This document shows, piece after piece, positions 152 through 6,274 of a stretch of DNA of 6,274 nucleotides. Below the pieces are notes generated by a model. It was not told where the DNA came from and searched no databases. It worked only from the letters and a program-made list of their open reading frames with translations. Source of the stretch: a virus (Duplodnaviria > Heunggongvirae > Uroviricota > Caudoviricetes); IMG/VR virus record IMGVR_UViG_2681813205_000009, one strand, 5' to 3'. A program made the translations under genes and the position numbers. How positions within the stretch are numbered: the stretch's first letter is position 1; each line of letters begins with the position of its first letter.

Positions 152-492
152 CAGTTCACCACCTGCTCAATCGTACAGCTGAAATCACTGTACCGGGCGT
201 TATCCGTGACGCTCCACTCCCGGCACACCACCCTCACCGTCCGGTTATGTTTCGGCGGTCGCCACAAAAAGGCACGGTAACCACCATGCCAGGATAAAAA
301 TTCATCCAGCCAGCGCCGGGTTGACTCATCCGTCACCCGGAACACCGCCTGAAACGTCTTCAGTTGAGGATTCAGCCCTGTGGGGCGACGCTGTTCATAA
401 CCGTCACCAAACCGTACCCTCGCCACCGACGGTTTCTCACTCACCTGCATCCCTTCACGCGGGACCAGATGCAGCGTTTTTATCTCAGCCAC
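151..492 (-). CDS. M: Minor tail protein M (113 aa)
   Basis: ORF track 151..492(-). Clear similarity to recalled lambda gpM (VRFGDGY, LKT, HGG..FLW.PP, C-terminal EQVVN). The start is GTG at 492..490, with an in-frame TGA immediately upstream so no ATG extension is possible. GGAGGAA Shine-Dalgarno lies about 7 nt upstream. Overlaps the tape measure stop by 8 nt (GTGGCTGA). Confidence 0.9.
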   Translation of the reverse strand: MAEIKTLHLVPREGMQVSEKPSVARVRFGDGYEQRRPTGLNPQLKTFQAVFRVTDESTRRWLDEFLSWHGGYRAFLWRPPKHNRTVRVVCREWSVTDNARYSDFSCTIEQVVN

Positions 493-3400
493 TCAGCATT
501 CCTCCGTCACGTCGCATGGACAGCATCACCGCCTGCACCCGCTGGTCAATCAGCTGCACAAGACTGCCTGCCGCCTCCGGCCCTATCTGGCCATTAGCCC
601 CGTCATTCTGAATGGCGATGTGGTAGACCGGGGAATACACCAGACCGGCACTGCCGTTCATACTGCCCACCGCGCGTACGCCCAGCGAGCCATCCGCCGC
701 CCGGGTCAGGGGCATAATGGCTTCAGGACCGGCCTCCCCCATCAGTCCCGCCCCTTTTGCAAAGGCAAAGTACGTGGGCGTATCCACAATACTGTTGCTG
801 TACGCACTCAGGTTTGCCGAGGTATACACGCCGCCTTTTGCATTGGCCACCGCCCCGCCCAGCCAGTCACCAATGCTGCCGAGAAATCCTCCCGCACCGG
901 ACATACCGTTTGCCGCCGTCTTAATTCCGTTGACAATCGCGGCATTCATAAGAACTTTTGATATTTCCTGCAGCACTGATGAGGCCCAGCTGCGCCATTC
1001 CACTTTATTTCCGTTCAGCATCTCCGTGATGTTATTCACCATCCCTGAGATACCCTCCGTCGCAAGCTGTGCTGCCTGTGAGGCGTAATCGGACGCATTA
1101 TCCACCCAGTTACTGAATCCCTCCTGCAGCCCTTTCTGCCAGTCCGCACGCTGCACATCCGATTCGGCATAAAAGGCTGCCTGGTCCTTAAGGCGTTCGC
1201 TCAGATACTGCGCGTTCTGTGCCCGTGCCTGTCTGTAAAAATCCTCACTGATATCCCCGGTCTGATACTGAGACTGAAGGTCCGCATCCTTCTGGCGGAA
1301 GCTGTCGCGGATCTGCTGCAACTCCCGCATGCGTTCTCTGGCTCGTTCCCCCTGCCCGTACCCCAGCAGTTCAGCATCATTCGACGCACGCGCAGCCGCA
1401 TTCTCATTCTTCAGTGTCTCTTCCCGGGATCGCAACTGTTCCCGGATTTTTTGCTGGTCAATCAGGGCCGCATTACGCAGCAGCTCCTGCTTCTGCATCT
1501 CCGTCAGGGTTTTCAGTTCGCCCTGCGCAGTCTGGTATTTCAGCTTCGCCAGCTCTGTATTCTGACCCGCCAGTGCCAGTTGCTCTTTCTGCTGCTTCAG
1601 TAGCCGGGAAAAACTGTCTTCCGCTTTTTCCGTCTCTGATTTTCTACCCCGGGATTTAGGTTTGTTCGCCTCGTTATTACGCCAGGCTTCCAGAGCATTA
1701 CTGATATAACGCTGTCTCGCCTCCTGATACGAATCCCCCACAAAACCAAGGTCATCCGCCGCATACCCCAGCCGGGCACGCTCTTTTTCCTCCCCCTTCA
1801 GTCGGGACAGGGCCAGCTCACGTTCTGTTTTTGTCAGGGCGCTCTGCTGTTTATCATCCAGGGTGGCCTGCGGCAGCCGTAACGGTACATTCACCAGTCC
1901 CTGACGCTGCTGAAGCAGTTCATTCCCCAGCCCCAGCAGACGGTTGAATTCCGTATGCTGACCGTTCATAACCAGCATGGACTGGTACACCTTATTCTGC
2001 TCTGCCGCCTGCTGACGAATTAACGCCACACGACGGTCTTCCAGCCCGGCAAGCACATCCTGAATGGACTGCGCTTTTTCCTGCATCTGTGCCAGACGGG
2101 ACTGCTCAACGGCAAGCTGCTCTGTTGCCTGAGCAAGCCCTTCCGTTACGGTCTTCACCGAGGTCAGATGGTTTATCATGAATCCGTCACCGGTCGTCCA
2201 GCCCGGGTTCGCCAGAACATACTGATATCCTGCGATTTTTTCCTGCAGGGATTTCACCCGACTGGCCTGTTCATCAATCAGCCGGTTCTGCTCTGTCAGC
2301 GCCGCCCGTGTTCGTCCTTCATTATCTGAGGCTTCAGGCAAAGACATTGACGGCGTTTTATGCGCGATTTCATCTATCGTCAGTGCATACTGGCGCGCAG
2401 ACTCCCTGGCCTGCTCCTGATTCTGGTACAGCGTGTACCATGCTGCAGCCCCCAGCATCACCAGTCCGGGTACGCCACCAACCAGCCCCAGCGCACCGCT
2501 CATCAGACGTGAGCCCACCGCCGTTGTACTGTTCAGCGCATTCTGGGCGGCGCTTCTGGCAGCAATATTTCTGTTCAGGCGTTCCTGTGTGGCCGCCAGA
2601 CGGGCCTCTGCAGCAATCTGCATCTCCGTCCCGCGGGCTGCCGCCACGGCCTGCTGAGCACGGTACACGGCTGCCCTTGCCCGCGCCGTGGCAATCTGCG
2701 TTCCCCTGAACTGTGCTTCCGCCAGTGCCACTTCATTACGTGCTGCCGTCACAAGTCCTGCCGTGGCAGACACCGCTCCGGAGGCCATATTGCCAAAGTA
2801 CCGGGCAACCCCGACGGCAACCAGCGCGCCCACGGCTGTTGCCACATTATCAATCTGTCCGGCAACACCGTTCAGCATGCCGGAGAGCGTTTTTGTCACC
2901 CCGCTGGCCTCATTCGCACCGCCCACCCAGGCCATAAAGGCGTTTTCCACCTTTGTGATACTACTGGAAACCGTTTCCGGCATGGCCGCATATTCATCAC
3001 GTAATATCCCCAGCTGGCTGATTAACGCGGGGACCACTTTATCCGCTGTCAGTTTTCCGTCATCCGCCATTGCCTTCAGATCTTTACGGGCCACGCCCAT
3101 ACCCGCAGCCAGTGCACGTACGATCCGGTCACCACTTTCATTGACCGAATTAAATTCCTCACCGCGTAACACACCCTGTGCCAGCGCCTGGCTGAACTGG
3201 GTGATCACCGAGCCCGCCTCTGCCGTACTGGCACCGGAGATTTTCAGCCCCGTGGAAATGGCCTCCGTCACCTTCAGCACATCATCAGCACTGTAACCAT
3301 ATTCACGCATTGAGGCTGCCGAGCGGGCAAACAGGGCCGCATTATCTGAAAATGCCGTGCCCGTCCGCTGACTGATATCCATCAGCACTTTCTGTGATGA

Positions 3401-3727
3401 CGAAAATTCATCAGATGACTGCGACGCCTGTTTCAGACGGGCATTCACGGAACTCCACTCATCAGCCAGTGAAATCAGGTGTCCGGTGGCAAAGGCACCG
3501 GCAAATGCGCCAGCCATTCCGACAGCAGAACCGCGAATTTCCGTCAACTGGCTGTTCAGTTCTGCCAGGGCACGTCGCTGCTCCCGGGCTGCCGCAGCGG
3601 CCTGACGCCCGCCATTCTGCAGGGTCCGGTAATATTCACTGCCCATACGGGAAGCACGCTGGAGCTCCGACTGGAATGACTGTGAATTTGCCGAAATTTT
3701 GATAATCAGTTCACGTAACGTCGCCAT
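485..3727 (-). CDS. H: Tail tape measure protein (1080 aa)
   Basis: Longest ORF in the window, positioned between the G-T chaperone genes and M. Ala/Gln/Arg-rich, predicted alpha-helical central region; hydrophobic Gly/Ala-rich segments (e.g. LMSGALGLVGGVPGLVMLGAAAWYTLY). The C-terminal tail (NDGANGQIGPEAAG...RRDGGMLSG) resembles the recalled lambda gpH C-terminus (NNDGTNGQIGPAAL...MRDGGLFSG). The N-terminal ~250 aa looks like a generic tape-measure N-terminal domain rather than lambda H. GAAAGG Shine-Dalgarno precedes the ATG at 3727. Confidence 0.95.
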   Translation of the reverse strand: MATLRELIIKISANSQSFQSELQRASRMGSEYYRTLQNGGRQAAAAAREQRRALAELNSQLTEIRGSAVGMAGAFAGAFATGHLISLADEWSSVNARLKQASQSSDEFSSSQKVLMDISQRTGTAFSDNAALFARSAASMREYGYSADDVLKVTEAISTGLKISGASTAEAGSVITQFSQALAQGVLRGEEFNSVNESGDRIVRALAAGMGVARKDLKAMADDGKLTADKVVPALISQLGILRDEYAAMPETVSSSITKVENAFMAWVGGANEASGVTKTLSGMLNGVAGQIDNVATAVGALVAVGVARYFGNMASGAVSATAGLVTAARNEVALAEAQFRGTQIATARARAAVYRAQQAVAAARGTEMQIAAEARLAATQERLNRNIAARSAAQNALNSTTAVGSRLMSGALGLVGGVPGLVMLGAAAWYTLYQNQEQARESARQYALTIDEIAHKTPSMSLPEASDNEGRTRAALTEQNRLIDEQASRVKSLQEKIAGYQYVLANPGWTTGDGFMINHLTSVKTVTEGLAQATEQLAVEQSRLAQMQEKAQSIQDVLAGLEDRRVALIRQQAAEQNKVYQSMLVMNGQHTEFNRLLGLGNELLQQRQGLVNVPLRLPQATLDDKQQSALTKTERELALSRLKGEEKERARLGYAADDLGFVGDSYQEARQRYISNALEAWRNNEANKPKSRGRKSETEKAEDSFSRLLKQQKEQLALAGQNTELAKLKYQTAQGELKTLTEMQKQELLRNAALIDQQKIREQLRSREETLKNENAAARASNDAELLGYGQGERARERMRELQQIRDSFRQKDADLQSQYQTGDISEDFYRQARAQNAQYLSERLKDQAAFYAESDVQRADWQKGLQEGFSNWVDNASDYASQAAQLATEGISGMVNNITEMLNGNKVEWRSWASSVLQEISKVLMNAAIVNGIKTAANGMSGAGGFLGSIGDWLGGAVANAKGGVYTSANLSAYSNSIVDTPTYFAFAKGAGLMGEAGPEAIMPLTRAADGSLGVRAVGSMNGSAGLVYSPVYHIAIQNDGANGQIGPEAAGSLVQLIDQRVQAVMLSMRRDGGMLSG

Positions 3728-3777: not shown

Positions 3778-4457
3778 TTATGACATTGCTGCAAAGCTCA
3801 GCGCGTCTTCCAGCGCCGCAAACGGATCTGACTCCACTTTATCCTCATCCTCGCCCCAGCAGAGCATGGCGTCCTCCAGTGAAACATTCATCCCCTGCGC
3901 CCCGAAAACCGCTTTCACGATCTGCGCATTACGGATATCCCCGCGCTCATCGCCCAGCGGGGACACCCTGTCGAACTCCATCCACATCATCGCCTCGCTC
4001 GCACTCAGACTGTGGCCCAGTTCGGATAAGGTGCGCCCCAGACGGAGCGCAAGTCGCATCAGAAAGCGAATTTCCGGGCGGGCTACTTTTTTCTGGCCGA
4101 CTCTGCATCAGCGATCAGTTCCAGTGCCTGACGCAGCAACCGGGCATGTACCGGACCATAGACGGCCAGCACCTGCTCACGGTCGTCCGGAGTGAACACC
4201 CGCTGCAGATCCGTATCACACAGGACATCGCAGAACAGCGTCACATCCGCTTCCAGGTTACGGCGGGTTTTCGCCACCACCGACAGGGTATCGTCATCCT
4301 CTCCATCACCATTGAGCACTTCCTGCCACAGATACCAGGCCTCTGCCGAAGGCTCCCGCAGCACCACGCTGACATTACCCCATTCCGGCACCTTCACCGT
4401 TTTATGACGAAACCCTGACAGTCTGGCCAGCGCCAGCGTTTTCAGATCCTTTTTCAT
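3778..4457 (-). CDS. Tail assembly chaperone G-T fusion made by -1 programmed ribosomal frameshift (about 226 aa)
   Basis: The G frame ends ...ARKK-TAG at 4083..4085. Slipping -1 at A_AAA_AAG (4086..4092) continues as VARPEIRFLMRLALRLGRTLSELGH..., which is exactly the ORF-track T-frame ORF 3778..4059. The T frame has no ribosome-binding site or independent context of its own. Position between major tail and tape measure genes matches the conserved G/GT arrangement of long-tailed phages. Confidence 0.8.
4083..4457 (-). CDS. Tail assembly chaperone G (about 124 aa from ATG 4457; the track ORF extends to 4505)
   Basis: ORF track 4083..4505(-). I prefer the in-frame ATG at 4457 (MKKDLKTLALARL...): it lies 14 nt after the major tail stop and is preceded by AAGGGGA. 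The 4505 start would overlap the major tail gene by 34 nt and add an Arg-rich leader. Acidic segment (NGDGEDDD) and terminal slippery heptamer are typical of G-like chaperones. Confidence 0.8.
   Translation of the reverse strand: MKKDLKTLALARLSGFRHKTVKVPEWGNVSVVLREPSAEAWYLWQEVLNGDGEDDDTLSVVAKTRRNLEADVTLFCDVLCDTDLQRVFTPDDREQVLAVYGPVHARLLRQALELIADAESARKK
4086..4092 (-). other. -1 programmed frameshift slippery heptamer A_AAA_AAG
   Basis: Minus strand reads GCC AGA AAA AAG TAG. The heptamer A AAA AAG (the same motif as the E. coli dnaX shift site) sits immediately before the G stop, and the -1 frame stays open for 102 codons to 3778. Confidence 0.8.
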
Positions 4458-4471
4458 GATGACCCATCCCC

Positions 4472-5188
4472 TTATCCGGCGGCTGCGCTCACTGTCACGG
4501 TGCATTCAACAGACGTCACACTCTGTGCTTTCTCTGCCGAATCGGTCACCACGCAGGTATATTTCCCCGCATCAGCGGACTGCGCACCTGGCTTACTGAA
4601 GGTGTCTGTCGTCTGCCCGTCAACCGGCTGACCATCCTTCTTCCAGGCGTATTTATACGGCGGCGTTCCCCCGTTGGCACTGACTGACATTGTCAGCAGC
4701 GCACCTGTATTCACGGTAAGTGTTTTATCCAGATTTTTCACAAACGCCAGCGGTACCACAAAGGACACCGGTTTGCCTTTCATACGCAGTGAAAACGTTG
4801 CTGCCACCACGCCGTTGGTACCGGATGACCAGGTGTGCTGACGCACTTCCGCCAGGAACTTAAAGCCCTTACCGGACGGAAACAGCACCTTAAACGCATA
4901 CAACGCGTCATTGTCATAGGCATCACGCAGGGCGTTCTGGGCCTGATTCAGATAAAAATTACCCGACATGGAAATCTCAGACGACGCCCCCAGACCGTTG
5001 ATGTTCTCCTGCTCTGTGGAGCAGAGCGTGGTCACATCAATATCCTGTTTCTGACCGGCGGTGAACTGGACTTCCTTGATGGTGCAGTCCAGGCGCAGAT
5101 ATTCCGCCTTATCCATAGTTTCAGCAGTCGCCGGGGCAGATGAAATCATCACCTGCGTCAGCTGTGAGCGTTCATACAAAGCAGACAT
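4472..5188 (-). CDS. Major tail (tube) protein with C-terminal Ig-like domain (238 aa)
   Basis: ORF track 4472..5188(-). Strong AGGAGG Shine-Dalgarno 4 nt upstream of ATG 5188. Lies immediately upstream of G/G-T, the conserved major-tail position. The C-terminal ~80 aa carry an immunoglobulin-type motif (YKYAWKKDGQPV...DAGKYTCVVTD), as seen in Ig-like decorations of phage major tail proteins. Confidence 0.88.
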   Translation of the reverse strand: MSALYERSQLTQVMISSAPATAETMDKAEYLRLDCTIKEVQFTAGQKQDIDVTTLCSTEQENINGLGASSEISMSGNFYLNQAQNALRDAYDNDALYAFKVLFPSGKGFKFLAEVRQHTWSSGTNGVVAATFSLRMKGKPVSFVVPLAFVKNLDKTLTVNTGALLTMSVSANGGTPPYKYAWKKDGQPVDGQTTDTFSKPGAQSADAGKYTCVVTDSAEKAQSVTSVECTVTVSAAAG

Positions 5189-5254: not shown

Positions 5255-5599
5255 TCACACCGTGACCTGAAACTCCAGGGTTGCACGGTAACAGCGGTTT
5301 TCCGGAATATAGTCCTGCATTTCACTGACGGATCCCGGGGCCAGCAGCATTATGGCTTCACGGGCGTCCTGACGTATCTGACGCGCCTGCGTCACAGTCC
5401 CGGCATAAACGTCTATCTGCACCGACACTGAGGACTCCGCCTGCCCGCCCATCACGTCCGCCGACACCGATGAAATCAGGCTGAAAACCACCCACGGAAG
5501 CGCCACCGACGGCCTGCCATCCAGCAGGGGGACCACATACGGGTACACCTGCCCGCCGGCAAGATGCGCCAGATGAGGATACAAATCCGCCTCCGTCAT
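5255..5599 (-). CDS. Tail terminator / tail completion protein, lambda U position (114 aa)
   Basis: ORF track 5255..5599(-). Size and position (immediately upstream of the major tail gene) match the tail-terminator slot. The N-terminal pattern (VYP...DGRP...PWVVF) resembles what I recall of DUF3168-type tail terminator proteins. Start ATG overlaps the upstream stop as ATGA. Family assignment is from memory, not a search. Confidence 0.65.
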   Translation of the reverse strand: MTEADLYPHLAHLAGGQVYPYVVPLLDGRPSVALPWVVFSLISSVSADVMGGQAESSVSVQIDVYAGTVTQARQIRQDAREAIMLLAPGSVSEMQDYIPENRCYRATLEFQVTV

Positions 5600-6042
5600 C
5601 GTCTCAGTACCTCATCAATGGCCCGGTTCATCCGAGCAATCGCCACTTGCGCTGCCTGTTCACTGCGCACATCAAACGCCGGACGCACAAACGGGTGCGG
5701 TGGCATATTCACGGTCCCCATTTCCACAAACCGCCAGTAGAAAGCGTTGCGCGGGTTATCCGCCTTCATGGTGTTATCGCTGTTACCGGTGTCCGGATTA
5801 ACACCCCGGATATGCACACCGGATTCCATCCCGCCATCGCGGGAGCGCCGGGAAAGGACCACCACATTGCGGCGCAGTTTTCCCCTGCGTACCGGTGCCC
5901 GTGACACCACTTCTTCTTTCAGCACATTCGCACCCGCACGGGTTGCCTCACGCAGCACCCGGTTATTTTCCGCACCACTCAGAAGCTGCAAATCGCGGCT
6001 GATGTCCTCCAGCCCCGAAAAATCCAGCAGGGTTTCGATCAT
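5596..6042 (-). CDS. HK97 gp10-family tail-component protein, lambda Z position (148 aa)
   Basis: ORF track 5596..6042(-). GGGAGG Shine-Dalgarno 7 nt upstream of ATG 6042. Conserved-looking C-terminal segment (AFYWRFVEMGT...PPHPFVRPAFD) resembles the HK97 gp10 family as I recall it. Positioned two genes upstream of the major tail gene. Confidence 0.7.
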   Translation of the reverse strand: MIETLLDFSGLEDISRDLQLLSGAENNRVLREATRAGANVLKEEVVSRAPVRRGKLRRNVVVLSRRSRDGGMESGVHIRGVNPDTGNSDNTMKADNPRNAFYWRFVEMGTVNMPPHPFVRPAFDVRSEQAAQVAIARMNRAIDEVLRR

Positions 6043-6184
6043 TTTTCACCTCCCAGCCGACAGAGAATTTCCAGACGTCCGCCGGTCGCATCCGGCACGG
6101 GCAGCCCGACAACGTTCAGGATCCGGTCACGCCAGGGACCACTCAGCACATGAAGTCGTGACGCTGCCGTCGATACTCCTGATT

Positions 6185-6214
6185 ATGATATCTTTTTAAC
6201 GGATAATCTGTCAA
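6185..6214 (-). promoter_or_regulatory. Candidate sigma70-type promoter reading into the tail genes
   Basis: Minus strand has TTGACA (complement of 6214..6209), an 18-nt spacer, then TATCAT (complement of 6190..6185): a perfect -35 and a 5/6 -10. It lies inside the only AT-rich island of an otherwise GC-rich window. Predicted start near 6178, about 136 nt upstream of the ATG at 6042. Confidence 0.35.
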
Positions 6215-6274
6215 ATCTTACTGACTCTGGCTTGCTTTTAAGCGATGATGAGTCTGGCGTACGGGCAATTGGCC
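6186..6274 (-). CDS. Possible 3' end of an upstream gene (C-terminal ~30 codons, unknown product)
   Basis: Only one minus-strand frame is open across 6186..6274, ending at TAA 6185..6183 with ...PDSSSLKSKPESVRFDRLSVKKIS. The composition is AT-rich and low-complexity, so coding status is doubtful. Not in the ORF track. Confidence 0.2.

Follow-up and report, generated by a model that had tools for sequence, protein, structure and literature searches.

The minus-strand frame that stays open near one end of the window, which is the whole 6,274-nt stretch of viral DNA analysed here, is almost certainly the 3' part of a phage head-closure gene, with bases 6170-6042 representing codons 74-116 of a 116-aa coding sequence. 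Hence 43 of the 47 open codons are coding sequence of a known phage gene, and it is because the region is the 3' end of that gene that the frame is open, that it overlaps the gene behind it and that it is missing a start signal. On alignment with its relatives, the openness of the frame is not due to chance. The loss of the upstream part of the gene is probably an artefact of assembly rather than the outcome of a real rearrangement, and the account as a whole, a head-closure 3' end that has been truncated by such an artefact, is considered likely to hold. The window corresponds to the entire draft contig JXWM01000211.1 of assembly GCA_000932215.1, as found by exact look-up of its tape-measure protein, and the coordinates of the features discussed below are collected in Table 1.

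On the minus strand the frame begins behind a TAA stop at 6185-6183, which forms its upstream limit as read from the strand and the list of open reading frames, and it runs from 6182 to 6042. It closes with a TGA (6041-6039) that shares bases with the ATG (6042-6040) of the gene for a 148-aa HK97-gp10-like protein, giving the sequence ATGA. The sole canonical start within the 47 codons is a GTG at 6149-6147, and no Shine-Dalgarno lies upstream of it when the minus strand is read directly. An AGGAG is also present, with no start codon at a working distance from it. Apart from the identification of the downstream gene, these points had all been made in the original prediction, and the minus strand and the list of open reading frames bear out the 47-codon frame, the GTG and the ATGA overlap, just as the strand bears out the absence of a Shine-Dalgarno near the GTG and of a properly spaced start for the AGGAG. 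Two details need correction. The GTG is where it was said to be, but the peptide that starts there has 36 aa instead of 37, the string written out in the prediction itself also having 36 letters, and the AGGAG motif, which is real, is at 6180-6176 and not at 6179-6175.

Table 1. Features at the junction end of the window (positions are those of the 6,274-nt stretch).
Feature	Position	Strand	Remarks
HK97-gp10-like neck/tail-component gene, 148 aa ('Z-like' in the original prediction)	5596..6042	-	PF04883, 39.4 bits, cut-off 21.4
ATGA stop/start overlap, head-closure gene / HK97-gp10-like gene	6039..6042	-	usual arrangement in the phage module
Last 132 nt of the head-closure/head-completion gene (almost certain)	6039..6170	-	codons 74-116 + TGA; PF05521, HK97 gp7-like
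GGAGG Shine-Dalgarno of the HK97-gp10-like gene	6049..6053	-	six bases before its ATG
GTG proposed as start	6147..6149	-	Val81 codon of the head-closure gene; alignment …SRLHVLSGPW…
Junction zone	6171..6180	.	AGGAGTATCG (minus strand); clean fit to neither parent; one extra G relative to phage ATC-ACGG
Internal fragment of chromosomal rcsD	6181..6274	+	nt 2191-2284 of 2673, codons 731-761; reads out of the contig end
Sigma-70 promoter-like site, TTGACA-18-TATCAT, 11/12	6185..6214	-	in the rcsD-derived tail; points into the phage genes

Translation of 6182-6042 gives SGVS followed by 43 residues, and all 43 coincide with residues 74-116 of the full-length relatives (seven aligned). At the level of DNA, comparison with phage 2851 reveals identity from ACGGCAGC (6170) through to the stop codon and unrelated sequence upstream. 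A full-length relative matches the Pfam family PF05521 (Phage_HCP) over residues 3-111 with 64.2 bits, against a cut-off of 25, and shares 43% identity with HK97 gp7 along residues 1-116. The 47-aa translation by itself gives no Pfam match at E <= 1, whereas the full-length relative, which has the same 43 C-terminal residues, does match PF05521. A full domain of this family, with about 105-116 residues and its own start codon, is not found in the window, where codons 74-116 only are present, and the 47-codon fragment is best regarded as a piece of a PF05521 member and an incomplete one. The protein is widespread, being covered at ≥80% in 166 of 173 phage records. In necks of the HK97 and SPP1 type, the head-closure protein closes off the filled head beneath the adaptor and offers the tail a surface for docking. 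We infer that a 43-codon piece of it without a start signal could not fold alone and would be functionless by itself, be the truncation technical or real. None of this is new, as the fragment belongs to a known PF05521 member in the well-described Stx-type lambdoid prophage family with an HK97-like head and neck.

The surroundings of the gene in its relatives are equally regular. A query spanning 5596-6274 is matched at 98-99.7% in 92 phage records and in upwards of 1,200 complete E. coli genomes, always from window position 6174 downwards only. The annotation of the matching part names a head closure protein and, after it, an HK97 gp10 family protein. Phage 2851 has a head-closure gene of 351 nt (1285-1635) and a gp10-like gene at 1632-2078, so that the two overlap by 4 nt. 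Ten loci from other genomes, each encoding an identical gp10-like protein, all have the gene order portal, PF05135 adaptor, 116-aa PF05521 gene and gp10-like gene, and the same 4-nt overlap recurs in all ten (9654-10004 and 10001-10447). Three more complete E. coli genomes hold an intact 116-aa gene with this overlap. Intact Stx-type lambdoid prophages therefore present a head-closure gene of 116 codons between the head-tail adaptor and HK97-gp10-like genes, and its start in the intact phage lies 219 nt upstream of what is the break point in the window. Whilst the relatives have both neighbours, the window has the HK97-gp10-like partner with its ATGA overlap and the upstream PF05135 adaptor gene is absent from the contig. 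For the exact 148-aa gp10-like protein the collection lists 42,325 blocks.

A separate observation concerns the portal gene, which often goes uncalled in this prophage type (in L006, L008, L010 and L011 at about 6790-9317, and in L028 at 9723-12145). Where it is called, its length varies between 805 and 861 aa, and in the annotation of a complete genome it is 'frameshifted', a pattern suggestive of repeated disruption, of trouble with a homopolymer or of some unusual form of decoding.

The original prediction had offered three readings of the region, namely an unannotated small protein, a leader peptide and the remnant of a disrupted upstream gene. The last has turned out to be the right one, with the 116-aa gene passing uninterrupted through the region in every intact relative examined, an outcome that the prediction itself had listed as a refutation of a separate small ORF. 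A separate 36-aa protein or leader peptide, begun at the GTG at 6149 and coupled to the gp10-like gene via the ATGA, would account for the open frame and for the overlap, but it is scarcely credible when set against the relatives, in all of which this GTG is Val81 of the 116-aa protein. Moreover, the GTG is without a Shine-Dalgarno, the gp10-like gene has a GGAGG of its own, no gene is called between 6039 and 6182 in the source contig record and exact look-up of the 36-aa product returns no protein on record. The fragment, which alone has no Pfam match, makes up the last third of a PF05521 domain and would not be expected to fold in isolation. Nor is the frame conserved as a separate small ORF, the upstream gene being continuous in phage 2851, in the ten loci and in the three further genomes, and the idea of a leader peptide falls in the same way, as the region is an inner part of a 116-codon gene in the relatives. 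Fainter still is the prospect of a structured RNA leader or attenuator that controls the tail genes. Its position upstream of these genes is all that speaks for it; a search of 5800-6274 on both strands gives no Rfam match at E <= 1, a scan of the region found no terminator-like site, and the region is protein-coding in all relatives, with an almost invariant coding sequence.

The head-closure sequence gives out between 6170 and 6174, with the blastn alignments to ten prophage loci stopping at 6170 and megablast reaching 6174 with a gap. The first four open codons (SGVS), and everything from there to the contig end, are made up of a 10-nt junction zone and about 94 nt of rcsD, which run in the opposite direction and are antisense to the phage genes. 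The product of rcsD helps to regulate capsule and motility and, in EHEC, genes for virulence. Bases 6181-6272 match rcsD nt 2191-2282 at 95.7% in 5,377 of 5,426 complete E. coli genomes. As an aside, the rcsD stretch in two records titled Enterobacter hormaechei (L016 and L017) is identical or nearly so to that of E. coli, which suggests that these are mislabelled or contaminated assemblies.

Within its 94 nt the rcsD tail carries five private substitutions, four of which are transversions and three of which are non-synonymous (P>L, A>D and E>A). The five sites are identical in E. coli, Shigella, E. ruysiae, E. whittamii and two unnamed Escherichia species, in a comparison to which E. albertii, E. 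fergusonii and E. marmotae contributed no representative genome, and four of these sites are also the same in Trabulsiella. The substituted P and A are kept even in a Salmonella RcsD fragment. The L, D or A variants are absent from the seven short fragments, none of them a full-length RcsD, that were returned by a protein search, for which the probe was a 51-aa hybrid of the 31-aa rcsD fragment and 20 E. coli residues and which covered those three species weakly. A natural, divergent rcsD allele was considered as the source of the tail and is unlikely in view of this invariance across the recovered Escherichia and, at four sites, in Trabulsiella.

The phage side of the junction is quite different, as none of its 6,170 positions differs from all of 13 relatives and the 132 nt of phage DNA adjoining the junction hold no private substitution. 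A private divergence of 5% on one side and none on the other cannot be explained by a recent fusion, but it can be explained by a tail that one or a few low-quality reads cover. The sequence is thus not of equal quality across the break, nor does it run on into the chromosome, for the break sits about 100 nt from the contig end, which comes 94-100 nt past the junction. A single-copy chromosome should let the contig continue, and its ending so soon after the junction favours an artefact. The break also falls in sequence that four prophages (L005-L008) of one genome share without a difference, and short-read contigs tend to end in repeats that are common to co-resident prophages. In the proposed sequence of events, the contig would end inside an exact repeat of co-resident prophages and a chimeric, low-coverage and error-rich rcsD read tip would be attached to that end, whilst in the real genome the head-closure gene would be intact and would be translated, with the usual coupling to the gene that follows.

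The rival view is that the junction is real and that a rearrangement has fused the prophage, at head-closure codon 74, to rcsD nt 2191. Such a junction could have come from a deletion in which the prophage lost its early and head regions and rcsD its 5' part, it could be the junction of a duplication or inversion, or it could belong to a sub-clonal variant. This would make the 43-codon piece a pseudogene remnant, the prophage a tail-only remnant and RcsD a protein without residues 1-730. Moreover, no ribosomes would reach the gp10-like gene by coupling, leaving it reliant on its own GGAGG. Prophage decay by deletion is common in such strains, the tape-measure, portal and tail genes of relatives being truncated, and the junction zone looks like filler DNA. 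Nevertheless, a real rearrangement is judged unlikely, as it has to contend with the private changes being confined to the rcsD side, with a contig that stops about 100 nt into single-copy chromosome that an assembler should cross, and with the absence of the junction from every collection scanned. None of the 5,426 complete E. coli genomes spans it, coverage reaching at most 85% of the 679-nt query and at most 63% of a 145-nt query; a 40-mer across the junction found no match when one genome per species was searched, a window-specific rcsD 25-mer found none in metagenome and viral contigs, and the same junction has not appeared in independent genomes. A local rearrangement involving a prophage beside rcsD was also considered and found no support. 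The single candidate, a lambdoid prophage about 10 kb beyond rcsC in the complete genome of strain E2865, has a head and tail module of another, lambda-type, kind.

One feature of the tail sits awkwardly with an artefact. Two of the five private substitutions convert TAGACG to TTGACA and raise a sigma-70 promoter-like site from a score of 9/12 to 11/12, and this near-consensus promoter (6214-6185) is directed into the tail genes, which could reflect selection on a real junction. Amongst 40,000 simulated sets of five random substitutions, 0.06% (6e-4) reach a score of at least 11/12. The gain of a promoter is not predicted by plain sequencing error, although the observation is post hoc. It is on account of these promoter-building substitutions that a real and possibly selected junction is kept as a minority reading, according to which a Stx-type tail-only remnant has been fused to a 5'-truncated rcsD and two mutations have made a promoter that drives the orphaned tail genes. 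This version is very unlikely. Were it true, input to the RcsC-RcsD-RcsB phosphorelay would be abolished, and the tail genes, with any cargo beyond them, would be driven independently of phage late control. An assembly artefact remains the preferred explanation of the truncation.

Several observations on the tail genes of the window stand apart from the question of the junction. On the minus strand the slippery heptamer A AAA AAG, at 4086-4092, immediately precedes the TAG that closes the gene for the tail assembly chaperone (PF06222), and the -1 frame after it continues into a Phage_tail_T ORF (3778-4059). It represents the G/GT programmed frameshift that is conserved in lambda-like tail operons. 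Like many lambdoid tail tube proteins, the major tail protein (238 aa, 4472-5188, minus strand) carries an immunoglobulin-like domain (PF13927 and related) at its C-terminus. The tape-measure protein (1,080 aa, 485-3727, minus strand) is on record with this exact sequence in JXWM01000211.1 only, and, since every base of the phage part is found in at least one of the 13 relatives, its gene is a new mosaic of known alleles and not a newly mutated one. In related prophages the tail operon also houses cargo genes (L012 16111-17274, L006 14538-16133, L011 18104-18631 and L028 403-930). A porin gene separates the M-like from the L-like gene, an Arc-type repressor and an antirepressor are set between L and K, and a gene for a Cu/Zn superoxide dismutase (sodC) precedes J.

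For biology the finding carries little weight, as the phage neck gene whose end is seen here is well known and the ATGA overlap is the standard means of coupling in this operon. Its use lies more in the caution that it provides. A start-less open frame beside the end of a draft contig should be tested first as a truncated gene, and the final 100 or so bases of such a contig can be both chimeric and error-rich. At face value the contig implies a disrupted rcsD and a defective prophage, neither of which should be claimed without read support.

The best counterparts of the fragment are the head-closure proteins of HK97-like siphophages ('Hc1' in phage annotation), for example YP_009909246.1 of phage 2851 and WP_001007905.1 of E. 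coli prophages, and the last 43 residues of the E. coli prophage members are the same as those in the window. With the prophages that carry them the window also shares the downstream HK97-gp10-like neighbour and the ATGA overlap, and the tail module continues after the gp10-like gene as it does there, with a gp17-like terminator, an Ig-domain major tail protein, the G/T chaperones, tape measure, M and L. Unlike the intact prophages, the window is without codons 1-73 of the head-closure gene and without the adaptor, portal and capsid genes, in place of which are the 10 nt of the junction and the rcsD fragment. The likeness extends to ATGA-coupled phage morphogenesis genes more widely, which have the same 4-nt stop/start overlap, and the gp10-like and gp17-like pair of the window overlaps too. 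In contrast to the standard coupled pairs, the upstream frame in the window has lost its start.

As to the manner of the truncation, the closest comparison is with the chimeric tips of short-read drafts of multi-prophage E. coli strains, in which the same kind of break in a co-resident repeat is followed by a foreign tail of about 100 nt at the contig end. As in such tips, the density of errors in the tail is far above that in the rest of the contig; unlike plain chimeric tips, two of the tail 'errors' build a consensus -35 hexamer.
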